Source: Nitrososphaerales archaeon (lineage in GTDB: Archaea > Thermoproteota > Nitrososphaeria > Nitrososphaerales > UBA57). From it: a stretch of DNA of 64,000 nucleotides. The stretch lies in the NCBI GenBank assembly GCA_047517285.1, contig JAKZTE010000001.1, forward strand, positions 27,498-91,497. Direction: 5' to 3'. Shown in pieces: positions 19,272 to 53,187 of this stretch. The position numbers and the translations under genes are program-made. A model generated the notes under the pieces. The model saw only the letters and a list, made by a program, of their open reading frames with translations, searched no databases and had not been told where the DNA came from. Numbering within the stretch: position 1 is the first letter of the stretch; each line of letters starts with the position of its first letter.

Positions 19272-19402
19272 GCAGGGGTAGCGAATCTTAACAGAGCGAA
19301 GCCCGGTCAACCGCGGATTAACAAAGCGGAAAGGACTCAAGATCGGCTTGTTGTGATATCCTCTCCTCTAGAGGTTCATGGGTTCAAATCCCATCCCCTG
19401 CA
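19272..19402 (+). tRNA. tRNA-Leu(CAA), 131-nt gene requiring removal of three introns (mature 85 nt)
   Basis: Acceptor GCAGGGG/CCCCTGC, T arm ATGGG-TTCAAAT-CCCAT, long variable arm TCCTCTAGAGGTTC and anticodon loop CTCAAGA. A cloverleaf forms only after excising about 19284..19298, 19317..19331 and 19342..19357. Confidence 0.85.
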
Positions 19403-19447
19403 CTTTCCATCGATACTTTTTTTGGATGGAAAATACTTACAACTATC

Positions 19448-19954
19448 ATGATTATTGAATTTAATGCCAACACCCCAAAAATTCAATCCGGTGTGTTTCT
19501 TGCTAGCAGTGCAGATGTTATTGGCGATGTTGTATTAGCAAATGATGTAAGTGTTTGGTATAACTCTGTAATTCGTGGAGATTTTAATTCTATTATCGTC
19601 GAGGATTCTTCCAATATACAAGATAATAGTATCCTACATGTTGACGCTGATGAACCTCTTAGCATTGGTAAAAATACAACAGTTGGTCATGGATGCATAA
19701 TACACGGATGTACAATTGGAAATTCCTGTTTAATAGGAATGGGATCACTAATCATGAACCGCGTTACAATTGGTTCTAATTGTATAATTGGCGCAGGTAC
19801 TCTAATAACGCAGGATACAAAAATTCCTGATAATAGTGTTGTAGTAGGAAGACCAGGAAAAATTATCAGACAGATTACTCAATCCGATTTGGCATATATT
19901 AATTCTAATGCCAAAGCTTACGTGTCTCTTAAAAACAAATACCTTAATCGTTAA
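19448..19954 (+). CDS. gamma-class carbonic anhydrase family / hexapeptide-repeat (LbH) protein
   Basis: Left-handed beta-helix repeats, VIRGD...I.IG..SNIQDNS.LH and the GHGCIIHG His pattern of the Cam/YrdA family. Confidence 0.8.
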   Translation: MIIEFNANTPKIQSGVFLASSADVIGDVVLANDVSVWYNSVIRGDFNSIIVEDSSNIQDNSILHVDADEPLSIGKNTTVGHGCIIHGCTIGNSCLIGMGSLIMNRVTIGSNCIIGAGTLITQDTKIPDNSVVVGRPGKIIRQITQSDLAYINSNAKAYVSLKNKYLNR

Positions 19955-19958
19955 TTTA

Positions 19959-20354
19959 TTATTCTTTAATAAATTCTAACGATACTGAATTAATACAATA
20001 TCTTTTACCTGATGGAAACGGCCCATCATCAAATACATGTCCTAGATGCGAATCACATTTTTTACATAGTACTTCCGTTCTAGCCATTCCTGCTATCTGA
20101 TCAATTTCAAATCTCACTGAATCACTATTATGCGGTTCAAAAAAGCTTGGCCAACCAGTTCCCGAATCAAATTTTGTATTTGATTTGAATAAATTATTAT
20201 CACAACATATGCATTTGTAAACCCCTTTATCCTTTGTTTCATAGTATTTACCACTAAACGGAATCTCTGTTGATTTATTACGACATACATCAAATTGTTC
20301 ATCGGATAAAATCTCCTTCCATTCACTCTCATTTTTACGTATTTTATCTTCCAT
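19959..20354 (-). CDS. msrB: peptide-methionine (R)-S-oxide reductase
   Basis: Two CxxC pairs (CICC-type CxxC, CKKC), GTGWPSF and RYCINS are MsrB (SelR) motifs. Confidence 0.92.
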
Positions 20355-20409
20355 ACTAAAATTTAGTTGTAAATTGTTATAACTTTTATCGAAATCTCAT
20401 TGTGAAATA

Positions 20410-20496
20410 TGGGCCCGGAGGGATTTGAACCCACGACTTTTGGTTATCTTCTATAATCCGAAGACCAACGCCCTATCCGGGCTGGGCTACGGGCCC
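20410..20496 (-). tRNA. tRNA-Arg(UCG) with 12-nt canonical (37/38) intron
   Basis: The reverse complement reads GGGCCCG TA GCCC AGCCCGGATA GGGC G TTGGT CTTCGG[ATTATAGAAGAT]A ACCAA AAGTC GTGGG TTCAAAT CCCTC CGGGCCC A. The CTTC/GAAG helix with flanking 3-nt bulges gives a BHB-like motif. The T stem has one U-U mismatch. The intron lies at 20446..20457. Confidence 0.8.
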
Positions 20497-20581
20497 AACA
20501 TTACTGAAGTAATTTAATATAAAAGTACAAATTTATGGGAAAAATATATTCACTATCAATTACTTAACTCCTATTGTATGT

Positions 20582-21133
20582 GTGAACGACAAATTGGAAG
20601 AAACAACTGATATTATTCAAGCAATAGAGAGCAGCAAGGGATTTTTGATTAAAGATAACGACTCCCGTCAAGAATTGAAAATTCGTGGTTTCGGCGAAGG
20701 AAAAAAACATGGATTATTATTAAGAGACTATGAAGCTCTTTATTTAATCTATTCTTCCAAACTTGATGTTATCAAGGATAATAAAAAGATAACTTTTAAT
20801 GACGTTCTTCAAACTGCTCTAATACGTGATGAACACGCTTGGACAAAATTCTTAATTTACCAAGATATTAGAACTCGTGGTTATGTAGCTAAAGAAGGCT
20901 TTGGTTTTGGTGCAGATTTTCGTGTTTATGATAAAGGAAATTTTGGTTCAAAAGCTGCAAAATATATTGTCTTTGCTATGAACGAAGGCAATGAAATAAA
21001 TACAAAATCTTTGACCGATTCTGTAAAACAAATTTCTAGAATGGGCAAAGTTCCAATTATTGCAGTTGTTGAAAGACGAGGTGAAGTTATTTATTATCGT
21101 TTATCTAAATCTCATTTTCGTGACTTGCTTTGA
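20582..21133 (+). CDS. endA: tRNA-splicing endonuclease family protein (EndA homolog; catalytic His apparently absent)
   Basis: FLIYQDIRTRGYVAKEGFGFGADFRVY...PIIAVV...EVIYY parallels M. jannaschii EndA as I recall it. The start is GTG. At the His position (about Y+10) the sequence reads KAAKY. Confidence 0.75.
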   Translation: MNDKLEETTDIIQAIESSKGFLIKDNDSRQELKIRGFGEGKKHGLLLRDYEALYLIYSSKLDVIKDNKKITFNDVLQTALIRDEHAWTKFLIYQDIRTRGYVAKEGFGFGADFRVYDKGNFGSKAAKYIVFAMNEGNEINTKSLTDSVKQISRMGKVPIIAVVERRGEVIYYRLSKSHFRDLL

Positions 21134-21981
21134 CATTTAATTTCATTGCTTTGCTTTCTCTAATTCGTCCGATAAATTCATTCATGATTGGTTTAGCTGT
21201 TATTGTAGGAATTGCAATTGGTTCTCCTGATATGTTATTCTCAAGACTATCAATTTATGGATTCATTACTGGATTCTCTATATCTTCTTATTCTATGATA
21301 ATCAACGATGTTTACGATATTGAAATTGATAAAGTCAATCAACCAGAACGCCCTCTTCCCAAACAATTAATCTCTGTCAATTCTGCATTATCATTATCTC
21401 TAATCCTATTATTAATTGGTCTTACCAGTTCATTACTAATTTCTTATTACCATATTATTATCACTGTAATCTTCTCTTTCTTATCTTGGTTCTATAATAT
21501 CTGGGGTAAAAAACAAGGACTAATTGGAAATTCTATAGTTGCATCTTCAATGTCTATCCCATTTATTTTTGGGGGCATAATCACTGGTAATATTTCATTA
21601 TTAGTTTGGTCCATCTCTCTCATAGCTTTTCTCTCAGGAATGGGTAGGGAAATAATCAAAACAATTGCTGATGTCGAAGGAGATCAGATTAAAGGTGTAA
21701 AATCCATTTCTATTCAATTTGGATTGCGTAATGCAATGCTCATTGCCTGCATCTTTATAGTCGGCTCTATTATTGTTTCATTTATTCCAGTTTATTTTGG
21801 TTTGATTCAAATCTATTATGTTCCATTATTGCTATTGACTGACCTGATTTTACTCTATTCGGTATCTATCATCTCAAAAAATTATTCAAAATCTGAATCA
21901 TTAAAAGTAAAAAAACTAATACTTTATGCAATGTTGTTTGGATTGATAACTTTTCTTGCTAATAGTGTGATTGTATGGTAG
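21130..21981 (+). CDS. digeranylgeranylglyceryl phosphate synthase (UbiA prenyltransferase family)
   Basis: UbiA motif NDVYDIEIDKVNQPERPLP and multiple TM helices, in an archaeal context. The start is TTG and overlaps the endA stop. Confidence 0.8.
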   Translation: MTFNFIALLSLIRPINSFMIGLAVIVGIAIGSPDMLFSRLSIYGFITGFSISSYSMIINDVYDIEIDKVNQPERPLPKQLISVNSALSLSLILLLIGLTSSLLISYYHIIITVIFSFLSWFYNIWGKKQGLIGNSIVASSMSIPFIFGGIITGNISLLVWSISLIAFLSGMGREIIKTIADVEGDQIKGVKSISIQFGLRNAMLIACIFIVGSIIVSFIPVYFGLIQIYYVPLLLLTDLILLYSVSIISKNYSKSESLKVKKLILYAMLFGLITFLANSVIVW

Positions 21982-21993
21982 GGGTGTTTCTTA

Positions 21994-23193
21994 ATGTGGA
22001 CTGAAAAATATCGACCAAAAGTTCTTAGCGAGGTAGCTGGCAACGACGATTTACGCGGTAAAATAAATAAATGGTTACGTACTTGGGATAAATCTTTCAA
22101 GCCTATTTTATTACAAGGAACACCAGGTGTTGGTAAAACTTCTCTCGTCTACGCTCTTGCTAAAGAACTTGATTATCATGTAATTGAACTTAATGCTAGT
22201 GATAAACGAACGAGGAATAATCTTCAATCTTCACTTGAACCTCTTTTTCAATCTACTACTCTGTTTAATGAAAAGATTTTAGTATTAATTGAAGAAGTCG
22301 ATGGCCTTGATTCACGAGCAGACTATGGCGGTGTAGACTTTCTTATTGAAACAATCGACAGTATAACTGTTCCAATCATTATTACTTGTAATTCCTCAGA
22401 TTCTAAAAAACTCTCCAAATTACTAAAAAAATGCCAGGTCTATAAATTCAAAAAAATCGATCCACGCCAAATAAGCTTAGTACTAGAATCAATTGTAAAA
22501 AAAGAAAAACTTACACTTCCTCTCGACGATATTGTCAATATTTCAACTACTTCTAATGGTGATTTACGTCATGCTATTAATGCTCTCCAGACATACGATT
22601 CGACCATAGAACAACCACGTTCATTTATTTCTAAATCATTATCTCTTGATCAAGGAATTCGACAATATTTTGATTCTGTTGATATGTCAGAGGCAATGAA
22701 TTCACTTCTTAATACTCATTCTAACCCAAACGACATATTACGTGCCATTTTTAGCAGTGTGGTCTCAAGTTCTAAAAAAATTCCAAATAATGAATTATCT
22801 AAAATCCTCTCAATACTGTCTGACATTGACTTGTTACTGGGACGTATAATAAAAACTCGTGAATGGAGACAATTAAGATACTTTAATTCCCTTCTTGTTT
22901 ATTCATTATTCGAAACTCTAACTCATCAACCAATTAAATTCAGTTTGTATCAAAATCCATTTCCATTACAAGTTCGTATCTGGAATGACGGCCGAAACTT
23001 TCGTACCATTGTAAAATCACTCAATAAATATACTAATGAATCAACCGATAATCTAGTAGATTTAATTCCTTATTTTATACTAATTCTATCAAAACAAGAA
23101 AACCGAAATAATCTTCTAACTCGTTTAGGATTAGAAGATAAAGAAATCAACACAATAAATAGAGAAATTACAAATATTTCTAAATCTAAGTAG
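21994..23193 (+). CDS. rfcL: replication factor C large subunit
   Basis: N-terminal WTEKYRP, Walker A GTPGVGKTS, Walker B LIEEVDG and sensor SNGDLRHAIN. Confidence 0.9.
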   Translation: MWTEKYRPKVLSEVAGNDDLRGKINKWLRTWDKSFKPILLQGTPGVGKTSLVYALAKELDYHVIELNASDKRTRNNLQSSLEPLFQSTTLFNEKILVLIEEVDGLDSRADYGGVDFLIETIDSITVPIIITCNSSDSKKLSKLLKKCQVYKFKKIDPRQISLVLESIVKKEKLTLPLDDIVNISTTSNGDLRHAINALQTYDSTIEQPRSFISKSLSLDQGIRQYFDSVDMSEAMNSLLNTHSNPNDILRAIFSSVVSSSKKIPNNELSKILSILSDIDLLLGRIIKTREWRQLRYFNSLLVYSLFETLTHQPIKFSLYQNPFPLQVRIWNDGRNFRTIVKSLNKYTNESTDNLVDLIPYFILILSKQENRNNLLTRLGLEDKEINTINREITNISKSK

Positions 23194-24460
23194 GCGTTAT
23201 TTCTTTCTGATTATTCATATAACTTCTTAATGCTCTTGGAATTGTAATACTTCCATCTTCGTTTTGATAATTCTCTATTATTGCAATTAAAGTACGTTCT
23301 GTAGCAGTCAATGTACTGTTTAGTGTATGCGTTAAAATACTTTCTTCGTGTGGTTTATTTCTAAATTTTATACCTAGTCTACGAGACTGAAAATCCGTAC
23401 AATTACTACAAGAAACTAATTCTCTGTAGTTGTTTTGTCCAGGCAACCAAGCTTCAATATCAAAAGTTTTTGCTGCAACTTTACCCATGTCCCCAGAACT
23501 CAGTAACATAATTCTATATGGTATTTCTAATTCTTTATAGAATTGTTTTACATCTGATAGAATTTCTTCATGCTGGTTCCAGGAACTTTCTGGATCAGCA
23601 ATCGAAAAAATTTCTACTTTTTCAAATTGATGTACTCTGAATATTCCTTTTGTATCTCTTCCATGAGATCCCGCTTCCTTTCTAAAACATGGACTAATTG
23701 ACGCATATTTTCTAGGCAAATCATCTTTAGAGAATATTTCATCTGAATGCATTGCGGCTAAGGCATGTTCTGACGTTCCAATTAAGTATAAATCCTGACC
23801 TTCGATTTTGTAAATCACTTCTTCAAAATCTGATAATATTACTGCTCCACTCATTGGTTTCCTATTCATTAGATATGGAGGTTGTAACATGGCATATCCT
23901 TTCTTATTGATATATTCAAGAGCAAATGCAATTAATGCATAATTCATTTTCACCAATTCATTTTTCAAAAAGTAAAATCTTGAACCTGAAATTTTACTTG
24001 CTCTCTCTATATCAATCAAGTCATTTTTTTCAGATAATTCTATGTGATCCAATGAATTCTTGTTTAACCCTGTTTCAGGCTGCCACTTCTCAATCTCTTT
24101 ATTTGACTTATCATCTATTCCTATTGGTACTGAATCATGGATTAAATTTGGTATGGATTCTAGACGATTATTATATTCATCTTGACTTTTTTTAGCGTTA
24201 TTTTGTAAATCTTCAATTTTAGTCGATATATTCTTCATTTCTGTTAATGTTTCTGTTATGTCAATTCCTTGTCTTTTCTTTGTTGATATATCCTTAGAAA
24301 TATTATTCCTTTGCATCTTATACGACTCTAGTTCAGTAATTAATTCTCTTCTTCCTCTATCTATTTCTAGAAGTTCTGAGATATCTAATTCTACATTCCT
24401 ATCTTTCAGCATATTGATGACTTTTTCTGGTTCTGCCCTCATTAACTTTGGATCAATCAA
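23186..24460 (-). CDS. serS: serine--tRNA ligase
   Basis: N-terminal coiled-coil arm and class II motifs (FRKEAGSHGRDTKGIFRVHQF, GxGxG-like core). Confidence 0.92.
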   Translation of the reverse strand: MIDPKLMRAEPEKVINMLKDRNVELDISELLEIDRGRRELITELESYKMQRNNISKDISTKKRQGIDITETLTEMKNISTKIEDLQNNAKKSQDEYNNRLESIPNLIHDSVPIGIDDKSNKEIEKWQPETGLNKNSLDHIELSEKNDLIDIERASKISGSRFYFLKNELVKMNYALIAFALEYINKKGYAMLQPPYLMNRKPMSGAVILSDFEEVIYKIEGQDLYLIGTSEHALAAMHSDEIFSKDDLPRKYASISPCFRKEAGSHGRDTKGIFRVHQFEKVEIFSIADPESSWNQHEEILSDVKQFYKELEIPYRIMLLSSGDMGKVAAKTFDIEAWLPGQNNYRELVSCSNCTDFQSRRLGIKFRNKPHEESILTHTLNSTLTATERTLIAIIENYQNEDGSITIPRALRSYMNNQKEITPT

Positions 24461-24461
24461 A

Positions 24462-24713
24462 TCATTTCACCTTTTCTAATGTTTTACTTGTCATATCAAT
24501 CATTGATAAAACTTCATCTACTGTATTTAACAAAGTTTCCATTACATTATTAGATTTGAAATTAATCTCTAAAATATTGTTCTTCACACTCTGACTCATT
24601 GTCATTCCTTCTGGAAAATCTTTATTATCTGGATCTAATGATTTTGCTATAATTGCTGCTGTAGACTTTTCTCTGAACTTCAAACTAATATCGATTTCTA
24701 TATTTTTTTTCAT
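24462..24713 (-). CDS. pcc1: KEOPS complex subunit Pcc1-like
   Basis: At 83 aa, its pattern (A..I..SL.PD...I...V..N.L.I.F.S.....L..TV...L) resembles archaeal Pcc1. It lies close to kae1 and bud32. Confidence 0.55.
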   Translation of the reverse strand: MKKNIEIDISLKFREKSTAAIIAKSLDPDNKDFPEGMTMSQSVKNNILEINFKSNNVMETLLNTVDEVLSMIDMTSKTLEKVK

Positions 24714-24744
24714 ATCTATTGTTTTAGATATTAATATTTTGTAC

Positions 24745-25191
24745 CTAGGCTAATTGAGCAACTACAGATTTATATTTCCACTTTTTAGGAATGATATTCT
24801 TCTTTTTGTAATATTTAGAAAGTCTGTGTACCTTGGCTTCTAACATCTCCAAAGATCTTACGTTTTTTCTATCTCCTCTATTTGATTTCAAATGGTTCTG
24901 CAAGCTTACAGCTCTTTTTACTAAAGTTTCCAAATCTTCAGGTATCTCTTGTTTTACCCCATTCTCTTCCATGAATTCTTTCATTTTCTTTCCAGTTACT
25001 GCTTTTATTGAAGAAACAGCATATTCATCTCTTAATTTAGTTCCTATCTGACTGGCATTCAATCCTTCTTTATTCATTTCAACAATAAGTTTTCCGATTT
25101 CTTCAGGAGTGACCTTCACCCAATCAGACTTCATAGTAGATGGCCTCATAGATTGAGATTTTCCTCTACTGTTTCCATGTATTCTAGTCAA
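24745..25191 (-). CDS. rps15: 30S ribosomal protein uS15 (S15P/S13e)
   Basis: N-terminal MTRIHGNSRGKS...RP and the C-terminal S15 helical domain (LQNHL..N..D......L...E.K..RL..YY). Confidence 0.9.
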   Translation of the reverse strand: MTRIHGNSRGKSQSMRPSTMKSDWVKVTPEEIGKLIVEMNKEGLNASQIGTKLRDEYAVSSIKAVTGKKMKEFMEENGVKQEIPEDLETLVKRAVSLQNHLKSNRGDRKNVRSLEMLEAKVHRLSKYYKKKNIIPKKWKYKSVVAQLA

Positions 25192-25239
25192 TTGTTCTCT
25201 TTTCCATATATGATGTTTATAATGATAAGTCTTGCGTTT

Positions 25240-25815
25240 TTATTGACTTTTTTCTAACCATTCCGCAAATGTTCGTGCTGCTTTTGACCTATGAGATGTT
25301 TGATTTTTTTCACTTAATGACATCTCTGCAAAAGTTTTGTTTTTTCCCTTTGGTGTAAATATCGGATCATAACCAAAACCTTGATTTCCTTGTAAATTTG
25401 CAGAAATATTTCCCTCGCAAATTCCTATGAAACTCTTTACAACTTTTCCCTTATCACCATACACAATAGCTGAATGGAATTCTGCTGTTTTATCTTCTCG
25501 ATTCCTTAGCAATCTAACTATTCCACCAAGTCCAATAGTTTTATACACAAATGCTGAATACGGACCTGGAAAACCATATAATGAATTAATATATACGCCA
25601 GAATCTTCTACAATGAATGCTTCATCAGTTTTTGTTGATATTTCTTTTGCTGAGTGTTCAGCAACCGATAATACACTAAATGCTTGTATTTCTGTTCCCT
25701 TTAAATCAACAACCCGAAGATCTAAGTCATAATTATCTAATATGTTCCTCATCTCTTCGTATTTGTCCATATTCTTTGTCGCCAAATTGATTTTTTTATT
25801 AGTCAACTCTTGCAT
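25240..25815 (-). CDS. non-canonical purine NTP pyrophosphatase (HAM1/RdgB family)
   Basis: ATKN..K..E, EDSG...N...GFPG.YSA and GFGYDPIF motifs. Confidence 0.88.
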   Translation of the reverse strand: MQELTNKKINLATKNMDKYEEMRNILDNYDLDLRVVDLKGTEIQAFSVLSVAEHSAKEISTKTDEAFIVEDSGVYINSLYGFPGPYSAFVYKTIGLGGIVRLLRNREDKTAEFHSAIVYGDKGKVVKSFIGICEGNISANLQGNQGFGYDPIFTPKGKNKTFAEMSLSEKNQTSHRSKAARTFAEWLEKSQ

Positions 25816-26455
25816 ATCTCCCTCTCATTTCAATTTTCTTTACAATGGAAAAAATTTCCTCCGACGAAAGCTTCATTACTGATTCGTAACCCTTCTTAAA
25901 ATTATTAAACACTTCATTAAAAACATCGTGATGAGCACTCTGTAAAATGCCTTTAAATAATCTTATATCTACTCCTTTATCCTCTGATTTTCTGCTTGTC
26001 GTAGATAATCCAAAATCAATCAAACATATACTTCCATTATCTCTTATTATCATATTTGACGTCGTTAAATCTCCATGAATCGTGTTGTTCTTATGCAATA
26101 CTGCGACTATTTCTCCAATCTTTTTACCTATATCTGACTTATTAGAATCATTTTTCATTAATACATCTCTCACTTTCATACCATCTACATTTTCCATTAT
26201 TATTTCTGATTTCTTTAAATCAACGAAATAAATAATTGGAACATCTAATTTTTCTCTTATCTTGTTTATCATGTTTGCTTCCTTCAAAGTTCTGCTAGAT
26301 CTAATAAATTCATCTATCTCCTGATGTCTATATTTCTTAATATCACGACGTTTTGAAATAGCCGATTTTCCAAACCATTCAGTAGAAGATACTATAGCTT
26401 CTGCACCAATATTGATTATTTTCGCCATTTTACATCTACTCTGTCTAATCTCCAT
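25799..26455 (-). CDS. bud32: KEOPS Bud32-type protein kinase
   Basis: RIO/Bud32-like small kinase with GAEA, HGDLTTSNMI and IDFGLS. The more likely start is the ATG at 26428 (MAKIINIGAEA), which overlaps the kae1 stop by 13 nt. Confidence 0.85.
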   Translation of the reverse strand: MEIRQSRCKMAKIINIGAEAIVSSTEWFGKSAISKRRDIKKYRHQEIDEFIRSSRTLKEANMINKIREKLDVPIIYFVDLKKSEIIMENVDGMKVRDVLMKNDSNKSDIGKKIGEIVAVLHKNNTIHGDLTTSNMIIRDNGSICLIDFGLSTTSRKSEDKGVDIRLFKGILQSAHHDVFNEVFNNFKKGYESVMKLSSEEIFSIVKKIEMRGRYARVD

Positions 26456-27414
26456 GATTGTTTAACCCAACTTTCTTCTACTGACACTTTTGTTCCACTA
26501 TTATATGCCAATATTCCAGCCCATGCAATCTGTGCACCACAATCTCCTGCGTAATTTCTGGGAATCACTGATAGCTTTGAACCCCTCTCTTTACACATGA
26601 CTTCTAACATTTCTTTCAATCTAGTGCTTGCTGCTACCCCTCCTGTTATTATCACTTCTTTCTTTTCTAAGAACGACAAAGCTCTTTCTGTCACTTCTGC
26701 TAACATGGCATATGATGTTTCTTGCAATGAAAAACATACATCTTCTATTTTCTCTCCCTTGTCAATCATCTTTTTTGCACTAGTTAAAATTCCAGAGAAC
26801 GAAACATCATTACCTTTTACAGAATAAGGTAATCTTAGAAAATTTTCTGATTCACTTGCTAATTTTTCGATAATTGCCCCCGCTGGGGAACTATATCCTG
26901 CATACCTTCCTATCTGATCAATGAGTTGACCTATTGTCAAGTCTAATGTTTCTCCAAACACTCTCCATTTTCCTGAATTAAATCCTAAAATCATTGTATG
27001 ACCTCCAGAAACTAAAAGATTTACAGGATCTGTTGCACGTGTCAATAAACAGCCTAGTTCAATATGTCCAATTGCATGATTTACTGGAACAAGAGGCTTG
27101 TTTAATTTCAGTGATAATGCTCGTGCTGCAGTTGCACCAACTCGGAGACATGGCCCTATCCCAGGTCCAGCCGAATACGAAATAATATCTAATTCTGTAT
27201 ATTTGATTTTTGCCTGTTCAATTGCTTTTTGTATTACTTCGTTTGCAATATTTGAATGATGCCTAGATGCTTCACGGGGATGTATTCCTGAACCTTTCGG
27301 CGCTTTGTAAATATCCTTCACATCTGAGAATATGTTTCCATTAGTATCAACGATAGACGCCCCAAATGTATGCGCTGTTGATTCTAAACCTATGCAAATT
27401 TGACTATTCTTCAT
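26416..27414 (-). CDS. kae1: tRNA N6-adenosine threonylcarbamoyltransferase Kae1
   Basis: ASKHA fold with GLESTAHTFG, HH.N, GPG.G.CLRVG and HIELG, typical of Kae1/TsaD. It is encoded separately from bud32. Confidence 0.92.
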   Translation of the reverse strand: MKNSQICIGLESTAHTFGASIVDTNGNIFSDVKDIYKAPKGSGIHPREASRHHSNIANEVIQKAIEQAKIKYTELDIISYSAGPGIGPCLRVGATAARALSLKLNKPLVPVNHAIGHIELGCLLTRATDPVNLLVSGGHTMILGFNSGKWRVFGETLDLTIGQLIDQIGRYAGYSSPAGAIIEKLASESENFLRLPYSVKGNDVSFSGILTSAKKMIDKGEKIEDVCFSLQETSYAMLAEVTERALSFLEKKEVIITGGVAASTRLKEMLEVMCKERGSKLSVIPRNYAGDCGAQIAWAGILAYNSGTKVSVEESWVKQSWRLDRVDVKWRK

Positions 27415-27439
27415 TAGTTAACATTTAAGAATCTCAATT

Positions 27440-27913
27440 ATGAATATATCTCTAACTATATTGAAAAAAACACAAAAAAAATTGGATTTTCGAACCATTG
27501 AAATTACTTTTGTCATTCATGAGACTGAGAATATTGATAAATTCTTATCTCATTTATTCGAAATCTTTGGTTTATCTGATACTGATCTCAGCATAAAAAA
27601 AACTGAAGGGCATCATAGGAACATTATACAATTGATTCGCGCTTATCTTATTCGAGACAGGGTACCTGAAATAACCGAAAAAATTCTTTCTTCTATTAAT
27701 ATAGCTGATCTTAAAACTATTAACAATGATCTACTTTACTATCTAGACGACAAATTCACTTTGTACTTACGGTTTAATAAACAAGATATAATTGACAACG
27801 TTCTAACACTTTCTTATGATGATTCTGTTCGCATCAAAATGAAACCAAAAATTAAATTAAATAAAGATAAAGCAATAGCTTCATACAAGGAACTATTGAG
27901 TGAATATTCATGA
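27440..27913 (+). CDS. DUF54/COG1325-like RNA-binding protein (predicted exosome-associated)
   Basis: VIHETENIDK resembles the HxTED motif of this family. Sitting immediately upstream of, and overlapping, a Pop5-like gene matches the conserved archaeal arrangement. Confidence 0.45.
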   Translation: MNISLTILKKTQKKLDFRTIEITFVIHETENIDKFLSHLFEIFGLSDTDLSIKKTEGHHRNIIQLIRAYLIRDRVPEITEKILSSINIADLKTINNDLLYYLDDKFTLYLRFNKQDIIDNVLTLSYDDSVRIKMKPKIKLNKDKAIASYKELLSEYS

Positions 27914-28137
27914 GAGTAAAACGAAGATATCTACTAACTGATAACGATAATCTTGCTAACATCAAATCATTAAATTTAAAGAACACTCGAATTGTACGAA
28001 ATAGCTTTAGCAAAACAATAATTCTAAAAGTAAACCTAGATTACATTCAGGAAATAAAACAACAACTTTCTAGTCATAATATTCAAATTCTTCAAGTTTC
28101 AGGCACTCTAAAATCAATCAAAAACAAGAAGAATTAA
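27910..28137 (+). CDS. RNase P protein component 2 (Pop5 homolog), short form
   Basis: N-terminal KRRYLL and C-terminal ILQVSGTLKSIKNK match Pop5 termini (KKRY..., V.GVSGTIKR...). At 75 aa it is shorter than the roughly 120 aa typical of the family. Confidence 0.5.
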   Translation: MRVKRRYLLTDNDNLANIKSLNLKNTRIVRNSFSKTIILKVNLDYIQEIKQQLSSHNIQILQVSGTLKSIKNKKN

Positions 28138-28262
28138 ATTATCTTAATACAATATAGTTTTGGGATGAAGTATTAGTCGCCCCAGACTGAATTCAGATGA
28201 AGCTCCAGGACATTGATCCTCTTTTACTCTGAATTATGAGGACACTGCGACGAAACTGACCA

Positions 28263-28745
28263 CTATTCTTTCCATGCAAGTATTATGTTTATTATTCCAA
28301 ATAAATTACCAAATAAAATTAATCCAATTCCCAGTCCACTTGGTATTGTAGCGAATTCCATCATTACTCCAACTACAAATTCTGACATGCCAGAATAAGA
28401 CGCAGACGATCCTACATAACCTCCCCAATACATGAAAATACAAGCTAACAATGCACCAATTTCTGTCAATATAATTTGCGCATAAAATAAATTTTTCTTT
28501 ATTAATTTGATTTCATATAATTTCCAAAGTAAATAGTACACGAATGTCCATGCAATAAATCCAACTACTGCCGAAAATAGAAATATAAAGTACGCTAAAA
28601 CCATATAGATTCCCGGCCATTCGGTAATTAGTATTGGAAAAGCTAATTGAGGAATTAAAATAGGAAACAAAAATATTATCGCAACAATTGTGTTTAATAC
28701 CGATAATTTCAGAAAATTCTTTATAACAGTTTCAATCCTAATCAT
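28263..28745 (-). CDS. hypothetical integral membrane protein
   Basis: Has 4-5 hydrophobic helices and no recognised motif. Confidence 0.45.
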   Translation of the reverse strand: MIRIETVIKNFLKLSVLNTIVAIIFLFPILIPQLAFPILITEWPGIYMVLAYFIFLFSAVVGFIAWTFVYYLLWKLYEIKLIKKNLFYAQIILTEIGALLACIFMYWGGYVGSSASYSGMSEFVVGVMMEFATIPSGLGIGLILFGNLFGIINIILAWKE

Positions 28746-28746
28746 G

Positions 28747-29058
28747 TTATTTTCTCTCCAAAGACTTTATTCCTGATATTATTAAAATTACCGAATATAT
28801 AGAACCTGTAAGTACTATTATTGATGCAATTCTCTTCCATATTCCTAAATCTTCTCGAAACGTCTGAACCTCTAATTGACTCAATAAAAATAAGAATATG
28901 ACTCCAAATAATATGGTGAAATTTCCCCATAAAACCGACATCTGTAATTCTCTCTTTTTTTCTATAAAAATATAAAATAACAGTCCTAAAAAAAATATTA
29001 ATATTGGCATAATTAAATACGGATTTAGTAAAATTAAAAAATAAATTTGATACAGCAA
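28747..29058 (-). CDS. hypothetical integral membrane protein
   Basis: Has three clear TM helices. I prefer it over the overlapping 28742..29077 frame, whose product is not membrane-like. Confidence 0.4.
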   Translation of the reverse strand: MLYQIYFLILLNPYLIMPILIFFLGLLFYIFIEKKRELQMSVLWGNFTILFGVIFLFLLSQLEVQTFREDLGIWKRIASIIVLTGSIYSVILIISGIKSLERK

Positions 29059-29165
29059 GCACTATACTCAACAACATAATTATATTTGAAAATTAGCTTC
29101 CGGATAATTGTACTAAATCAATGATTAATTTCGTAATATTTAATACAATTTACATTAATTATAAT

Positions 29166-31478
29166 ATGGTAATGTCTGATTCCTATATTCGACCACTTGA
29201 CTCTTTAAATCGTAAAGACGGAGATATCGTAGGTGGAAAAAGCGCTAATCTTGGCGAATTATTGAACGCAGGTCTTCCAGTTCCTGGTGGATTTGCTATA
29301 ACTACTGCGGTTTACAAAGAATTAGTTATAGAAACAGAATCAAAGAACCAGATTCATGATTTATTGAATAATTTGGATATGGATGATTTTGATTCAATAA
29401 ATTCGTGTAGTGCGCAAATTCGTGAATTAATCGAAAAAATTCCTCTTCCTGAAGCTCTAATATCTGAAATTCAATCTTCTTATCGCTCATTAGGAGATGA
29501 TATTGAAGTTGCAGTAAGAAGCAGTGCCACTGCCGAAGATCTCCCATCTGCTAGTTTTGCAGGTCAAATGGATTCTTTTTTGTATATTAAAGGAATTGAA
29601 AATGTTCTAAAGTCAGTTAAAAAATGCATTAGTTCAGTTTTTTCATCTCGTGCAATATCTTATAGACATGAAAAAAACTTTGATCATTTTATTGTTCTTG
29701 CAAGTGTTACTATTCAAAAAATGCTAGATCCTGAATCTGCCGGTGTTATGTTTACACTTAATCCTGTAACTGGTGCAACAAACGAAATATACATAGAAGG
29801 TTCATGGGGAGTTGGCGAAACCATAGTACAAGGTAAAGTTGATCCTGATTCTTTTATTGTTCAAAAACCTGAATTAAATATCTCGTCTCGTACTATTAAC
29901 ACTAAAAAACTTATGACCATTCGTGGAGCAACACAAGGAAAATTCTCAATTGCTGACCGTGCTTCTGCAACAGAAATTGATGTTCCCCTTGATATACAAA
30001 ATAAACCATCAATCGATGACAATACCGTTAAACTTCTATCTGATTATGCAGTTAAAATCGAGAAACATTACAGCAAACCTATGGATATAGAATGGGTTCT
30101 TGAAAAAAATTCACATCAGATCTTTATTGTACAAGCTCGTCCAGAAACTGTTCATTCAAAACCTCAAAATAATAATGAAATTATCTTAAAAGGTATTGGA
30201 GCTTCTTCTGGTGTTAGTTTCGGTCCTGTAAATGTTATTTTAGATATTAAGAACATCGCTAGTTTCATCGACAAACAGGTTCTTGTTACTCAAATGACTA
30301 CTCCTGATTGGACACCAATTATGAAACGCGCTTCTGCAATTATTACTCAATCAGGCGGGGCTACTGCTCATGCTGCTATCGTTTCTAGGGAATTGGGAAT
30401 TCCGTGTATTGTAGGCGCGAAAGATGCAACAAACATATTGAAAACTGGACAAGAAGTTACAGTAGATGGTTCTACTGGATGTATATACGATGGCAAAATT
30501 GAAATCCAAAATAAATCTGAAACTCAATCTTCTTCATTTGAAAGTGAATCTTGGCCTATAACTGCCACCCAAATATATATGAATTTAGGTTCTCCTGACC
30601 TTATTGATAAATATAAAGTTCTTCCATTTGATGGAATAGGTTTAATGCGTCTTGAATTCTTAATTGCAGATAAAATATCTAAACACCCATTAAAAATAAT
30701 TGAGGATAATGAATCAGACAAATTTGTTAACGAACTCTTTAACGGCATAAATAAAGTAGCTAGTACTATCTTTCCACGACCTCTCGTTGTACGTTTTAGC
30801 GATTTCAAATCTAATGAGTATCGTAAACTTGAAGGCGGAGAAAAATACGAACCACATGAAGAAAATCCAATGATTGGCTGGAGAGGTATTTCTAGATATA
30901 TTAGTCCTGATTACCAACCTGCATTTCGTTTAGAATGTAAGGCAATTAAAAAATTAAGGGATGCAGGTATGTCAAATGTTTGGGTGATGTTACCATTTGC
31001 TAGAACAATTCCTGAAGTAAAAGAAACATTGAAGATCATGCAAGAAGAAGGACTAGAACGCAGTGATGATTTTAAAGTATGGTTAATGGCAGAAACTCCT
31101 AGCCTTGTAATTCAAGCAGATGATTTTGCAAAGCTATGCGATGGATTTTCTATCGGCAGTAATGATTTAACCCAGCTTATGTTAGGCGTTGACCGTGATT
31201 CTGAGTTATTACACCGCCTTGGATATTTCAACGAACGCGATCCTGCAGTTCTGAAAGCAATCAAAACTCTCATACGCGCTGCACATGATAACGATATAAC
31301 AATCTCTATCTGCGGACAAGCTCCATCATTATACCCTGATTTTGCTGCTTGGTTAGTAAAAGAAGGAATTGATAGCATTAGTGCAAATCCTGATTCTGTC
31401 ATAAGGACTCGCCGCTCAGTTGCAGGAGCAGAAAGAAAAGAACTTCTTAGACTACGACAAAATTCAAATTCTGAATAA
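29166..31478 (+). CDS. ppsA: phosphoenolpyruvate synthase (pyruvate, water dikinase)
   Basis: VGGKSANLGEL, the phospho-His swivel domain (GGATAHAAIVSRELGIPCIVG) and the C-terminal PEP-utilising TIM barrel (GSNDLTQL, C in ICGQAP). The track start of 29121 adds an implausible Ile/Asn-rich leader; the ATG at 29166 fits the family N-terminus. Confidence 0.92.
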   Translation: MVMSDSYIRPLDSLNRKDGDIVGGKSANLGELLNAGLPVPGGFAITTAVYKELVIETESKNQIHDLLNNLDMDDFDSINSCSAQIRELIEKIPLPEALISEIQSSYRSLGDDIEVAVRSSATAEDLPSASFAGQMDSFLYIKGIENVLKSVKKCISSVFSSRAISYRHEKNFDHFIVLASVTIQKMLDPESAGVMFTLNPVTGATNEIYIEGSWGVGETIVQGKVDPDSFIVQKPELNISSRTINTKKLMTIRGATQGKFSIADRASATEIDVPLDIQNKPSIDDNTVKLLSDYAVKIEKHYSKPMDIEWVLEKNSHQIFIVQARPETVHSKPQNNNEIILKGIGASSGVSFGPVNVILDIKNIASFIDKQVLVTQMTTPDWTPIMKRASAIITQSGGATAHAAIVSRELGIPCIVGAKDATNILKTGQEVTVDGSTGCIYDGKIEIQNKSETQSSSFESESWPITATQIYMNLGSPDLIDKYKVLPFDGIGLMRLEFLIADKISKHPLKIIEDNESDKFVNELFNGINKVASTIFPRPLVVRFSDFKSNEYRKLEGGEKYEPHEENPMIGWRGISRYISPDYQPAFRLECKAIKKLRDAGMSNVWVMLPFARTIPEVKETLKIMQEEGLERSDDFKVWLMAETPSLVIQADDFAKLCDGFSIGSNDLTQLMLGVDRDSELLHRLGYFNERDPAVLKAIKTLIRAAHDNDITISICGQAPSLYPDFAAWLVKEGIDSISANPDSVIRTRRSVAGAERKELLRLRQNSNSE

Positions 31479-31501
31479 ATTACTGATCTTTTAATTTTAT
31501 A

Positions 31502-32578
31502 CTATGCAGGACTTGGTAATCCTTCTATGCCTAATTGTATTTTAACTATAGATGGACCTATTCCTAATGAATTATCTTCATTATCTCCCATTCCTCCTAT
31601 GTCAAAATTAGTTACGTATATTGCTTCACCTGAGAATGCTACACTTGATGGAAATTCTAATGGTCCAGTATTGTCATTTTTAGATACTTCGATAATTCTT
31701 CTTCCACCATCGCCCTCTGGAGTTATTGCCATTATTGCATTCCTTCTATTAACTGCTACCCATAAATTGCCTGCTTTATCAAAAGCAATTCCATCTGCAC
31801 CTAATAACGCTTCATGACTTCTCCATACGGTTACAGATACTATTGCACCATCTTCTTTTCTAGTTTCAACTTTATGAATTACACCATTACCTGTATTTGA
31901 AAAATATAATGTTCCATCATCATCAAATGCAAGTCCATTAATTCCAAACGGAAATGTTGGATCTCTCGATACTAACTGATTTGCAAATTCTCTCTCCATT
32001 TTTGTCTGCATATCAACTTCCCAGAGTACTCCGCTTATACTGTTTGATACAAACATTCTACCAAAGTTGTCAAACGCTATGTCATTTGTAAACCCTAATC
32101 CAGATTTAAATATTTTAGCTTTACCAGGAGAAGCTGCACTTATATCGTCTTTATCTAATTTCCATATCTGTCCACGTCCTCCAGTCGCAACAAAAAGATC
32201 ACCTTCATGATCAAATTTTATACCAAAAAGACCAATTCCTTCGCCATCTGCTTCTACCCTACCAACAACATCCGCTTTCCCAGTTAATGGATCAATTCGT
32301 ATAATATTTCCTGTATTTTCCCCGATGTATAAATTTCCATCTTTATCCGAAGTAATACCTTCAGCAAAATTCGTCATTTCATTTGAATTAGGATCTAAGT
32401 CCAAAAGTAATTGTGGTTTTAATCCTGGTCTTGGATCATAGGATATCTGACGGTCAAATACAAATACTCCTAAAAACATCACTGACAAGCCTAATACTAC
32501 TAAAATAATTAACATATTTTTTTGTTCCATCCTATCTTCCCCCTTACTGATATTTCTTATTAACTTGCTTATAGGCAT
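31502..32578 (-). CDS. SMP-30/gluconolactonase/strictosidine-synthase-like beta-propeller protein, N-terminally membrane anchored
   Basis: One TM segment (LIILVVLGLSVMFLGVFVF) is followed by repeated DG.L(Y/F)V...G motifs typical of six-bladed propellers. Confidence 0.6.
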   Translation of the reverse strand: MPISKLIRNISKGEDRMEQKNMLIILVVLGLSVMFLGVFVFDRQISYDPRPGLKPQLLLDLDPNSNEMTNFAEGITSDKDGNLYIGENTGNIIRIDPLTGKADVVGRVEADGEGIGLFGIKFDHEGDLFVATGGRGQIWKLDKDDISAASPGKAKIFKSGLGFTNDIAFDNFGRMFVSNSISGVLWEVDMQTKMEREFANQLVSRDPTFPFGINGLAFDDDGTLYFSNTGNGVIHKVETRKEDGAIVSVTVWRSHEALLGADGIAFDKAGNLWVAVNRRNAIMAITPEGDGGRRIIEVSKNDNTGPLEFPSSVAFSGEAIYVTNFDIGGMGDNEDNSLGIGPSIVKIQLGIEGLPSPA

Positions 32579-33080: not shown

Positions 33081-33127
33081 TCGATATACTTAATACCAAT
33101 TTATTCAAACTTTACTATGGGGAGAAA

Positions 33128-33532: not shown

Positions 33533-33536
33533 TAAA

Positions 33537-34217: not shown

Positions 34218-34225
34218 TTACTAAT

Positions 34226-34472: not shown

Positions 34473-34560
34473 TGGACCGGAAGGGAATTGAACCCTCGAC
34501 CTTCCGAGTTCTTGGTTTTTTACATGCAAGTCGGATATTCTACCGCTGAACTACCGGCCC
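34473..34560 (-). tRNA. tRNA-Ala(UGC) with 16-nt canonical intron
   Basis: The reverse complement reads GGGCCGG TA GTTC AGCGGTA GAAT A TCCGA CTTGCA[TGTAAAAAACCAAGAA]C TCGGA AGGTC GAGGG TTCAATT CCCTT CCGGTCC A. The G3:U70 Ala identity pair is present. The CTTG/CAAG helix with bulges CA|T and AA|C forms a BHB motif. The intron lies at 34509..34524. Confidence 0.88.
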
Positions 34561-37756: not shown

Positions 37757-37858
37757 GGGCCATTAGCTCAGCTTGGTTAGAGTATAACACGGCAAAAGCG
37801 TTCGACTGATAATGTTTCAGACATCGAAAGGCCGAGAGTTCAAATCTCCCATGGCCCA
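37757..37858 (+). tRNA. tRNA-Ile(GAU) with two introns (16 nt at about 26/27 and 11 nt canonical)
   Basis: GGGCCAT TA GCTC AGCTTGGTTA GAGT A [TAACACGGCAAAAGCG] TTCGA CTGATA[ATGTTTCAGAC]A TCGAA AGGCC GAGAG TTCAAAT CTCCC ATGGCCC A. The canonical intron has a clean BHB: CTGA/TCAG helix with bulges TA|A and AC|A. The T stem has one A-C mismatch. Confidence 0.8.
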
Positions 37859-51092: not shown

Positions 51093-51106
51093 ATAGTATT
51101 GCTACT

Positions 51107-52114
51107 TTGGGTTCTCATTGTGCTTTACAAGTCCTCAAAGGCGCTAAAGAAGAGGGTTTTAATACAGTCTTGGTTACTAAATCGTCTCGAGAAAAACTCT
51201 ATAGACGATATGATTTTATTGACGAATATATTGTCGTAGAAGATTTCCAAGAAATTACGAATGAGGATATCACAAATAAACTGACGGAACTGGATTCAAT
51301 TTTAATTCCTCATGGCACTTTAATTTCTGAAGTAGGAATTGAAAAAATCGAAAAACTTAATGTTCCAATCTTTGGAAACAGACATATCTTACGATGGGAA
51401 GCAGATCGAGATCTTAAAACTAAATTAATGGAAAAATCAGGTGTTTCTATTCCGAAAATATTCAATTCTCCAGAAGAAATTGATTGCCTAACAATTTCTA
51501 AATTGTCCGGAGCTCGTGGAGGCTCTGGTTATTTTCTTGCTAAAAATTCAGAAGATTATTATTCTAACGTGGATAAATTCAAAAAACAAGGTTTAATGAC
51601 TGATGCAGACGAACTCCAAATACAAGAGTACATTGTAGGCGTTCCAGTATATTTGCAATACTTTCAGTCTCCTCTCAAAAATGAATTGGAACTCTTTGGA
51701 ATAGATAAACGATATGAAACTAATGTCGATAGTTTAGGACGGATTCCAAGTACTGACCAAAATGAACTTAAAATATCTCCTACGTATATCGTAGTTGGTA
51801 ACCTGCCTCTAGTTCTCAGAGAATCTCTCCTTGTCGAAGTATATGATATTGGGGACAACTTTGTAACAGCAAGTAAAGAGTTAGTTCCACCAGGTATGCC
51901 TGGACCATTTTGTATGGAGGGCGTTTATGATTCAAATGGAAAATTCATTGCATTTGAATTTTCTGCTCGTATAGTTGCTGGTACTAATATATTTACTACA
52001 GGTTCACCATATTCTTACTTGACTCATGGCGCAAATATGAGTATGGGTAGAAGAATTGCTTTAGAAATCAAAACTGGCATCGACAATAACACATTAGATG
52101 ATTTACTTACATGA
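51107..52114 (+). CDS. PurP paralog (second FAICAR synthetase-like ATP-grasp protein)
   Basis: TLGSHCALQVLKGAKEEGFNTVLV and colinear similarity to the upstream PurP. The start is TTG at 51107; an in-frame stop at 51077 limits any 5' extension. Confidence 0.75.
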   Translation: MGSHCALQVLKGAKEEGFNTVLVTKSSREKLYRRYDFIDEYIVVEDFQEITNEDITNKLTELDSILIPHGTLISEVGIEKIEKLNVPIFGNRHILRWEADRDLKTKLMEKSGVSIPKIFNSPEEIDCLTISKLSGARGGSGYFLAKNSEDYYSNVDKFKKQGLMTDADELQIQEYIVGVPVYLQYFQSPLKNELELFGIDKRYETNVDSLGRIPSTDQNELKISPTYIVVGNLPLVLRESLLVEVYDIGDNFVTASKELVPPGMPGPFCMEGVYDSNGKFIAFEFSARIVAGTNIFTTGSPYSYLTHGANMSMGRRIALEIKTGIDNNTLDDLLT

Positions 52115-52891
52115 TCATCTGAGTGTTTCTAAAGACTTGCTATCTGGCCTCAACAAGTTCATTAATATCTCAAAATACTCGATTAATACGGATGCAAAGT
52201 TACCATCATCATTCAACTCAAACTTTGTTAGAAACTCCTCGTATTTCTCATATTTTTGTTTATTTGCATATTTATAAAATGAAAGAAATTGTGTATTTTT
52301 ACTAATCATTAACTTAGATAATTCTGACGATTCACTCAAAAAATTACGTCTCTTTAATGAAGCCAATGCAAACGCATTTCTTGCCAATAAAGAAGCATCT
52401 ATCAGATTATTTCCTGTAGGCTCATCCGACATCCATGTCACAAAAAAATTCTGAACCAGCTTTCTCTCTCTCTCATTGTTCATTAACTGAAAAACAATAT
52501 CATCTACAATCATGTTTTGAAGATGATTAAAACCTTCACTCAATGAACGCGCTTCTAAGTTGTTTAATCCTTCTTGCTCAACGACATGTGATATCACTTC
52601 ATTAATAATTTCTGTTTGATGCGACGGTGAATTTATTTCTGTAAAATATATATGTGCTAATTCATGAAGAATTAATCCATTTAACATATCCGAGTCTAAT
52701 GCCCAATCTGCAATTACAATTGAACTATTATTGGAATCAATTTTTGCATAACCCATGAATTGTAATTCGGAATCAATTTCAATAGATACCTTATTGTGCA
52801 GTTCATAACCCGCATTCTTCATATTTTTAATCGCCAAATCAAGCGATTCTTCTAAAAACTTATCCTGACTCGTCGATTTCATTCTAATCAA
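52115..52891 (-). CDS. hypothetical protein with HExxH zinc-metallopeptidase motif
   Basis: The only recognisable motif is ILHELAHIYF. Confidence 0.4.
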   Translation of the reverse strand: MIRMKSTSQDKFLEESLDLAIKNMKNAGYELHNKVSIEIDSELQFMGYAKIDSNNSSIVIADWALDSDMLNGLILHELAHIYFTEINSPSHQTEIINEVISHVVEQEGLNNLEARSLSEGFNHLQNMIVDDIVFQLMNNERERKLVQNFFVTWMSDEPTGNNLIDASLLARNAFALASLKRRNFLSESSELSKLMISKNTQFLSFYKYANKQKYEKYEEFLTKFELNDDGNFASVLIEYFEILMNLLRPDSKSLETLR

Positions 52892-52930
52892 TAAATAATT
52901 GCTTTCTAATGGTTATAAATTTAAAGAAAA

Positions 52931-53032
52931 TGGACCGGAAGGGAATTGAACCCTCGACCTTATGGGATAGTGATCTTTCCGCATGCGAAGCGGATAGTAT
53001 ATCTTTCGATTCTACCGCTGAACTACCGGCCC
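52931..53032 (-). tRNA. tRNA-Ala(CGC) with two non-canonical introns (13 nt after position 25; 17 nt after position 43/44)
   Basis: The reverse complement reads GGGCCGG TA GTTC AGCGGTA GAAT [CGAAAGATATACT] A TCCGC TTCGCAT GCGGA [AAGATCACTATCCCATA] AGGTC GAGGG TTCAATT CCCTT CCGGTCC A. G3:U70 is present. Outside the anticodon arm the exons are identical to tRNA-Ala(UGC) at 34473..34560. Confidence 0.82.
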
Positions 53033-53112
53033 TGACTTCTATATGAGATATTCACATAATTGTTTATCCAATAACTCAAAACTTAAAGAAGGCTAATATT
53101 AAGTTAATTAGA

Positions 53113-53187
53113 GCGGTCATCGTATAGTTTGGTTTAATACGTTAGCTTGCCAAGTTGATAACTCGGGTTCAAATCCCGGTGACCGCA
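53113..53187 (+). tRNA. tRNA-Gly(GCC), intron-less
   Basis: GCGGTCA TC GTAT AGTTTGGTTTA ATAC G TTAGC TTGCCAA GTTGA TAAC TCGGG TTCAAAT CCCGG TGACCGC A. This is a continuous 75-nt cloverleaf. Confidence 0.88.

Follow-up and report, generated by a model that had tools for sequence, protein, structure and literature searches.

Short, positionally conserved introns interrupt five of six tRNA genes in a heterotrophic marine thaumarchaeon

Can tRNA genes that are interrupted as often as those described here be ordinary working genes, and if so, how would such short inserts be recognized and where did they come from? The question is raised by a 64,000-nucleotide stretch of contig JAKZTE010000001.1 (GenBank assembly GCA_047517285.1, positions 27,498 to 91,497 of the forward strand) from a Nitrososphaerales archaeon, the whole of which we refer to as the window. 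A preliminary description of this stretch, made from the sequence alone, reported six tRNA genes, five of them interrupted by a total of nine introns of 11-17 nt, and suggested that several of these introns share a single unusual site and a sequence core left behind by possibly once-mobile elements. Our analysis makes it very probable that all six are ordinary, functional genes of a member of the heterotrophic marine Thaumarchaeota (HMT), and that five of them contain nine short, protein-spliced introns of the bulge-helix-bulge (BHB) type that are ancient in the clade and vertically inherited.

The tRNA genes of the window (n=6) specify Leu-CAA, Arg-UCG, Ala-UGC, Ile-GAU, Ala-CGC and Gly-GCC (Table 1). 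On the raw window, ARAGORN called tRNA-Gly(GCC) alone, that is one of the six genes, and the Rfam tRNA model at its curated threshold found four of the six (Arg, Ala-UGC, Ala-CGC and Gly), with insertions in the alignments of 12 nt in Arg, 16 nt in Ala-UGC and about 30 nt in Ala-CGC. The Leu gene was located by a scan for an acceptor and T-arm, and the Ile gene through a string quoted in the preliminary description. A tolerant acceptor/T-arm scan of the window detected no additional GC-rich pair and no seventh tRNA-like gene. When the nine segments were excised in silico, each of the six genes was recognized by ARAGORN as a canonical tRNA bearing the anticodon claimed for it, which confirms that five of the six genes are interrupted and that there are nine introns. 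Both spliced Ala tRNAs have G3.U70, and CCA is encoded by none of the six genes. The places and identities of the six genes, as well as the number and size of their introns, had thus been correctly described (as judged by Rfam, ARAGORN, the scans and in-silico splicing), and the three strings quoted at the time, cTTAACAgAGCG, aTTAACAaAGCG and aTAACAcggcaaAAGCG, are found in the window letter for letter.

Table 1. Coordinates of the tRNA genes, their introns and the EndA-family gene in the window
Feature	Position	Strand	Size	Intron site	Central helix	Evidence and remarks
tRNA-Leu(CAA)	19272..19402	+	131 nt			Three introns; mature 85 nt; acceptor/T-arm scan, ARAGORN on spliced form
Leu intron 1	19286..19300	+	15 nt	about 14/15	2/4	Cloverleaf and D-loop pattern; junction ambiguous within 19284-19300
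Leu intron 2	19317..19331	+	15 nt	27/28	4/4 (CCGC/GCGG)	Inner TT/AA, loop AACA
Leu intron 3	19342..19357	+	16 nt	37/38	3/4 (U.U)	Outer helix 4
tRNA-Arg(UCG)	20410..20496	-				One intron; Rfam 56.9 bits, ARAGORN on spliced form
Arg intron	20446..20457	-	12 nt	37/38	4/4	Outer helix 5
EndA-family (tRNA-intron endonuclease) gene	20582..21133	+	183 aa			PF01974, PF02778, TIGR00324
tRNA-Ala(UGC)	34473..34560	-				One intron; Rfam 60.6 bits, ARAGORN on spliced form
Ala(UGC) intron	34509..34524	-	16 nt	37/38	4/4	Outer helix 5
tRNA-Ile(GAU)	37757..37858	+				Two introns; mature 75 nt; quoted string, ARAGORN on spliced form
Ile intron 1	37781..37796	+	16 nt	22/23	3/4	TTAG/AGTATAACACGGCAAA/AGCG; D-stem restoration in L088
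Ile intron 2	37812..37822	+	11 nt	37/38	4/4	Outer helix 5
tRNA-Ala(CGC)	52931..53032	-				Two non-canonical introns, no canonical one; Rfam 40.3 bits with 48-nt insertion, ARAGORN on spliced form
Ala(CGC) intron 1	52997..53009	-	13 nt	24/25	3/4 (GTAG/xTAx)	C-G pair closing tetraloop
Ala(CGC) intron 2	52961..52977	-	17 nt	43/44 (variable loop start)	3/4	
tRNA-Gly(GCC)	53113..53187	+				Uninterrupted; ARAGORN and Rfam; L214-L216 copies intronless too

Splice junctions were read with the known rule of anticodon-intron pairing, under which exon bases X-5 to X-2 pair with intron bases n-5 to n-2, the bulges are (X-1, X / i1) and (i(n-1), i(n) / Y), and each cut falls two bases 3' of the helix. The central helix so defined has four of four pairs in four introns, three of four in another four, and two of four in Leu intron 1. 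As background, every position of these precursors taken together gives a probability of 0.167 for at least three pairs and of 0.028 for all four. Only the four 37/38 introns have an outer helix of 4-5 bp; the five ectopic introns have one of 0-1 bp, and inner helices are limited to 0-2 bp because the introns are only 11-17 nt long. The strict hBHBh' form, with both flanking helices, is therefore not what these introns present; the ectopic introns represent the relaxed hBH/BHL forms, since the outer helix is essentially lacking. A further 37/38 intron was seen in a related locus, in tRNA-Ser(GCU) at L088:9550-9643 (+), where it is the single intron of the gene and has a central helix of 4/4. 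At 10 nt (TTCTGCAAAG), it is very short among archaeal tRNA introns.

Further information on the junctions and on their history comes from orthologues. Related loci (labelled L followed by a number) were gathered via three flanking proteins and one DNA pattern scan: relatives of the endonuclease gene (L081-87; 85%, 72% and 58% protein identity), of SufB (L088-93; 81% and 77%) and of 3-hydroxy-3-methylglutaryl-CoA (HMG-CoA) reductase (L214-217; 79%, 75%, 66% and 58%). A metagenome scan with the Ile pattern, allowing a gap of 0-25 nt, added one true relative, JGI contig L107; the remainder consisted of 77 intronless Ile genes from other organisms and many chance matches. Orthologues of the Ile gene are present in L088, L090/91, L092 and L107, and of the Ala-CGC gene in L214, L215 and L216. 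All nine introns are found at the same positions in L001, L081, L084, L088, L107 and L214-216, so far as each locus covers the gene in question. Inferred mature lengths are constant among orthologues at 85 nt for Leu, 75 nt for Ile and 72 nt for Ala-CGC, and stand at 75 nt for Arg, with 76 in L084. Intron lengths range from 11 to 21 nt (12, 15 and 19 nt in Arg, 14-16 nt for Ile intron 1 and 17-21 nt for Ala-CGC intron 2).

The introns also diverge in sequence. The tRNA-Leu gene is identical in L001, and the copy in L081 differs by one exon change versus six intron changes. Pooled over the orthologues, exons differ from the window by 5.2% and introns of equal length by 19.2%, a difference of about fourfold (Fisher P=1.6e-7). 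The Arg introns differ in sequence among orthologues with the helix kept, and several changes elsewhere are compensatory or strengthen the helix: T-A to A-T in Leu intron 2 (L081), U.U to U-A in Leu intron 3 (a T to A change in L081 that restores a 4/4 helix), T-A to C-G in Ile intron 1, and both G.U to G-C and G.A to G-C in Ala-CGC intron 1. A comparison of orthologous tRNAs across related metagenome-assembled genomes (MAGs) had already been proposed in the preliminary description, and its outcome is that positions are conserved, with differences only in more distant lineages. The tRNA-Ile of L090/91 has introns at 22/23 and at the start of the variable loop and no 37/38 intron, and the Ala(UGC) genes of L088 and L092 have a 25/26 intron that is absent from the window copy. 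A tRNA-Ile(GAU) with three introns, at 22/23, 37/38 and the variable-loop start, was observed at L092:391-514 (-), in the Nitrososphaerales MAG GCA_044232415.1 of NCBI. Because positions are conserved while intron sequence and length diverge, vertical inheritance is indicated; as read from these alignments, the introns are ancient in the clade and have occasionally been gained, lost or shifted at deeper nodes.

The orthologues and the helix rule bear directly on where the ectopic introns lie. The Leu, Ile and Ala-CGC introns near the junction of the D-stem and anticodon-stem had been assigned to one and the same site (positions 25-28). Instead they fall at three sites, Ile 22/23, Ala-CGC 24/25 and Leu 27/28, and thus mark a zone rather than one site. 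Recorded ectopic tRNA intron positions include 22/23 and 25/26 (PMC4090602). For Ile intron 1, 22/23 is the sole junction that rebuilds the D-stem in L088; its central helix, GGTT/xxCC, has 3-4 of 4 pairs in four lineages, and its inner helix consists of G-C and T-A, or of G-C and C-G in L092. The central helix of Ala-CGC intron 1 is complete in L216 (4/4, GTAG/CTAC), and Ala-CGC intron 2 retains a constant pyrimidine-pyrimidine mismatch, C.C (or U.C), in four lineages. Hand checks of the Ile splice sites given earlier, within 25-28, found no exon-intron helix in any register. RNAalifold applied to five Ile precursors returned the cloverleaf stems only and no intron structure.

An enzyme of the expected kind is encoded nearby. 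The EndA-family gene lies 86 nt from tRNA-Arg, in divergent transcription, and its product passes the NCBIfam endA cut-off (TIGR00324). The best solved relative is M. jannaschii EndA, to which residues 22-175 align with two 1-residue gaps and zero insertions; Tyr115 (Tyr116 in the window protein) and Lys156 are kept, and an Ala stands opposite the catalytic His125. Between the window protein and 13 thaumarchaeal homologues, no position at all has a conserved His. In a search of 1.84 billion proteins, 66/85 single-domain representatives were without a His at the catalytic site and 19/85 had one. The nine closest representatives are all without it, and the His-bearing ones are among the more distant relatives. 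The His distinguishes the catalytic from the structural subunit, and full-size structural subunits occur in some Crenarchaeota (PMC2724299). The EndA-family gene probably encodes such a full-size structural subunit of a two-subunit enzyme, and an endonuclease of two subunits would be expected here because the encoded copy lacks the catalytic His. Relaxed motifs require (alpha-beta)2 or epsilon2 enzymes (PMC5829648). The specific loop (CSL/L1) with a conserved Lys, to which broad specificity is due, belongs to the catalytic subunit, which the encoded protein probably is not. The dependence on a broad-specificity endonuclease put forward in the preliminary description is therefore plausible, given five introns without outer helices and a His-less EndA-family gene in the same window.

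Protein splicing of relaxed specificity is well supported by inference from these features, and it would proceed as follows. In the precursor, the four exon bases at X-5 to X-2 would pair with intron bases n-5 to n-2, and the cuts would be made two bases past the helix. The remainder of each intron would form a small loop or a mini-hairpin of 1-3 bp, because the introns are so short. At the 37/38 introns the outer helix would be provided by the anticodon stem, and the five ectopic sites would be presented as relaxed hBH/BHL substrates with essentially no outer helix. Cutting would be carried out by the archaeal splicing endonuclease, expected to be of the two-subunit type, and the exons would presumably be joined by an RNA ligase.

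Several observations weigh against this account of the nine introns. All nine splice junctions were placed from sequence, and for those that were ambiguous by 1-2 nt the register with the best helix was taken. Four introns, entered as non-canonical in this tally, have one helix mismatch each, and the 25/26 intron in Ala(UGC) of L088 obeys the pairing rule only with a 1-nt offset. No second endonuclease paralogue or catalytic partner was found by tblastn in the window or in the recovered related loci. Finally, Leu intron 1 fits poorly: its central helix consists of two G-C Watson-Crick pairs between A.G and G.A, and the one cut that would give it a complete BHB fold, of 17 nt, would delete A14/R15.

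The junction of Leu intron 1 is ambiguous because of a direct repeat. The 6-nt repeat AGCGAA (window 19280-19300) flanks the 9-nt unique part of the intron and resembles a target-site duplication; it is matched at 5/6 in L081. Excision of 15 nt is called for by the cloverleaf and the D-loop AAGCC(T/C)GG of other thaumarchaeal Leu tRNAs, and leaves an inner helix of C-G and T-A with the loop TAAC. The sole complete BHB fold has a 3/4 helix, an inner TCT/AGA and an outer GG/CC, and corresponds to the 17-nt cut at 19285-19301. Alternative junctions, all within the AGCGAA repeat and of neighbouring lengths, were also tried, and none combined a good BHB with a normal D-loop.

These features raise the alternative that recognition of Leu intron 1, and possibly of further ectopic introns, departs from the standard two-bulge ruler, either by way of the folded tRNA body or in an ordered pathway in which another intron is removed first. 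Consistent with such a departure, the cloverleaf-compatible junction has two Watson-Crick pairs and the strict BHB fold is shifted by 1 nt on each side, outer helices are absent throughout the ectopic introns of the window, and a separate intron model was needed for Thaumarchaeota in tRNAscan-SE 2.0, whose description notes that closely spaced introns may have to be removed in sequence (PMC8450103). However, the pairing rule uses splice-site-proximal bases only, and removing other introns therefore cannot alter the pairing. The G.A pairs beside the GC core may simply be tolerated, and the comparison on which any covariation at this intron would rest is limited to two distinct Leu sequences. 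We consider a different ruler unlikely, and continue to treat Leu intron 1 as one of nine BHB-type introns.

The similarity among the introns has a different bearing, since it had been taken as the mark of a related, possibly formerly mobile family of micro-introns spread among unrelated tRNAs, leaving a common core and a preferred site. The proposed core, TAACA...AGCG, does not hold up under comparison. Shuffling or random drawing yields a 5-mer common to three of nine introns, as TAACA is, in 30-35% of cases, and another 5-mer, AAGAT, is as widely shared among the nine. In each case TAACA is part of the apical loop of the intron mini-hairpin, and the equivalent loops in relatives read AATA, ATCA, ATT and TTGA. 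The AGCG of Ile belongs to the exon (A23 G24 C25 G26); that of Leu intron 2 is the strand pairing with the 3' strand of the D-stem, and that of Leu intron 1 is a copy of the 5' strand of the D-stem; the GCG of both Leu introns is demanded by pairing with, or copying, the GCG:CGC D-stem. The apparent GCGGA repeat at Leu intron 2 arises because CCGCGG is palindromic. As for the 10/12 match reported between Leu introns 1 and 2, it is present in the window at borderline significance (family-wise P about 0.05) and drops to 8/12 in the sister lineage L081, where the TTAACA of the two introns reads TTAATA and ATAATC. Overall, the similarity between introns is statistically unexceptional and not conserved in relatives, and it is accounted for by exon sequence, complementarity to the same D-stem and an A-rich hairpin loop.

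What can be said for a mobile family is that Leu introns 1 and 2, which may have a common origin, do match at 10 of 12 positions, that the AGCGAA repeat around Leu intron 1 looks like a target-site duplication, that intron transposition has a precedent in Thermoproteales (Fujishima 2010, as cited in PMC4090602), and that intron content varies among deeper lineages, as with the Ile variable-loop intron (L090/91, L092) and the Ala(UGC) 25/26 intron (L088, L092). Set against these points are the chance level of TAACA, the fall of the Leu match in L081, the exonic origin of the Ile AGCG, the three different sites (22/23, 24/25 and 27/28) and the positional conservation of nine out of nine introns in relatives. 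Patchy presence among close relatives was not seen, and recent mobility is contradicted by intron positions that are the same in relatives whose neighbouring proteins are merely 58-85% identical. A formerly mobile family is thus highly improbable. Barely credible is the further alternative that some or all of these genes are pseudogenes in decay, products of misassembly or mere remnants of tRNA-like form, with inserts that are never removed: the Leu and Ile genes do go undetected by Rfam and ARAGORN on raw sequence, Arg and Ile do have one T-stem mismatch each and Leu intron 1 is without a clean splicing motif, but the same interrupted genes occur in independent assemblies (ENA, JGI, NCBI and Logan), the inserts change about four times as fast as the exons, whose own changes preserve stem pairing, identity elements such as G3.U70 are intact, and uninterrupted copies were nowhere seen in the regions examined.

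The host is a heterotrophic marine thaumarchaeon of the deep sea and belongs to a clade (HMT/HMN, Nitrososphaerota) that does not oxidise ammonia. The phosphoenolpyruvate (PEP) synthase of the window is 97% identical to that of 'MAG: Thaumarchaeota archaeon isolate ATL', and the ATL contig shows 96.4% DNA identity over window 19124-34390. A scan of the genome collection with the PEP synthase gave one close relative; no other match exceeded 55% identity or was syntenic. The related loci adjoin a form III-type RuBisCO/pentose-phosphate cluster and a pyrroloquinoline quinone (PQQ) dehydrogenase, and the window has a GC content of about 33%. The HMT/HMN group has a mean GC of 32.6%, and its describers used 'ATL MAGs' (PMC7300363, PMC13374868). 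The assignment to HMT rests on the match of the RuBisCO and PQQ-dehydrogenase neighbours and of the 33% GC to HMT hallmarks. The lineage had been described as TACK-like, which is right: the nearest genome is a Thaumarchaeota MAG, with neighbours and GC of HMT type. The two descriptions of HMT/HMN cited above do not mention tRNA introns.

Several other features of the window and the related loci were observed. Following HMG-CoA reductase is a conserved cluster encoding PGK, phosphoribosyl pyrophosphate (PRPP) synthase, an IF-2B-like isomerase, ribulose-phosphate epimerase, transketolase, transaldolase and an epimerase (window 54896-62569 and L214-L217; PGK at 54896 was tested, and the rest was read from syntenic loci). 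In related loci it ends with the RuBisCO large subunit, and the cluster is an HMT signature. Between tRNA-Ala(UGC) and SufB sits a gene (34599-36230, -) for a SufD-like protein fused to a C-terminal Rieske 2Fe-2S domain, a fusion conserved in relatives. An archaeal signal recognition particle (SRP) RNA is found near a PQQ dehydrogenase at L088:5601-5914 (+; Rfam 107 bits). With regard to the tRNA genes, a TATA-like A/T-rich box lies about 30-40 nt upstream of each one (for example 19230-19245, 20515-20528 and 37728-37740), and that of the Leu gene, TTTATTTAA, is kept in L081. This suggests that each tRNA gene has its own archaeal promoter, with a leader of about 20-30 nt. The T-stem mismatches are U50.U64 in tRNA-Arg and A50.C64 in tRNA-Ile; the latter is common to 4/5 lineages, and L088 repairs it to A-U.

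These introns matter for annotation. Two of the six genes here escape standard tools, and programs blind to ectopic introns will under-count HMT tRNAs and lower completeness estimates. That a streamlined oligotrophic archaeon has retained dense micro-introns over a long time bears on the persistence of tRNA introns. The graded orthologues, with fixed positions and free sequence and length, also provide a natural mutagenesis series with which to define the smallest substrate accepted by the thaumarchaeal splicing endonuclease, an enzyme apparently without biochemical characterisation in the literature. A stronger claim would be that, despite streamlined genomes of about 1 Mb, HMT possibly exceed every known lineage other than Thermoproteales in tRNA introns, with 1.5 or more per gene and some genes holding three, and that nearly all of these are micro-introns of 10-17 nt without outer helices, at least one of which, Leu intron 1, is off the standard ruler. 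We regard this combination as decidedly unlikely; if true, it would imply substrate recognition by the endonuclease unlike that of the characterised crenarchaeal enzymes.

Many non-canonical and multiple tRNA introns are already known from Thaumarchaeota, and tRNAscan-SE 2.0 handles them with a BHB model built for the purpose (PMC8450103). The same 2021 survey covers 217 archaeal genomes. Its 11 Thaumarchaeota genomes contain 498 tRNA genes with 93 canonical and 107 non-canonical introns, or 0.40 per gene, and include 39 two-intron genes and zero three-intron genes. All 16 three-intron genes of the survey are in Thermoproteales, with a mean of 0.84 introns per gene. The window shares with the surveyed Thaumarchaeota the phylum, a mixture of 37/38 and ectopic introns, genes with at least two introns and a relaxed BHB model; their endonuclease is reported as the two-subunit type, and the same would be expected here. 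The window differs from them in having nine introns in six genes and a three-intron Leu, with a three-intron Ile in the related MAG at L092. Six genes are too small a sample for a genome-wide intron rate. Calculated from the survey counts, finding at least five of the six interrupted would be improbable if 32% of genes were interrupted, as is average for Thaumarchaeota, but not if the figure were the 53% of Nitrososphaerales.

Thermoproteales offer the closest parallel in density. According to PMC4090602, they share with the window up to three introns per gene, ectopic sites, and a density near or above one per gene; their ectopic sites include 22/23 and 25/26, and their endonuclease is (alpha-beta)2. 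The same paper cites near-identical introns in unrelated tRNAs of Thermoproteales (Sugahara 2008; Fujishima 2010). In the window, by contrast, intron similarity across genes is not above chance once the exon and exon-pairing bases are counted, and positions are conserved in the clade. The relaxed substrates of Crenarchaeota and ARMAN (hBH, HBh' and BHL) resemble those proposed here in having a central 4-bp helix, one well-formed side and a second splice site in a loop or single strand (PMC5829648, PMC3241643, PMC2724299), features that in the window are predicted from the DNA. Like those of the window, the ectopic tRNA introns of nucleomorphs and of Cyanidioschyzon merolae are very short (3-24 nt), occur several to a gene and interrupt the D, anticodon and T arms (PMC4090602, PMC3728597); they differ in belonging to eukaryotic nuclear or nucleomorph genes, in being processed by another enzyme complex and in having no phylogenetic link to it. 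The window adds no new kind of element or mechanism to these systems. It is an unusually dense and well-conserved instance of a known archaeal phenomenon, multi-intron tRNA genes, and comes from a lineage for which such genes were undescribed.

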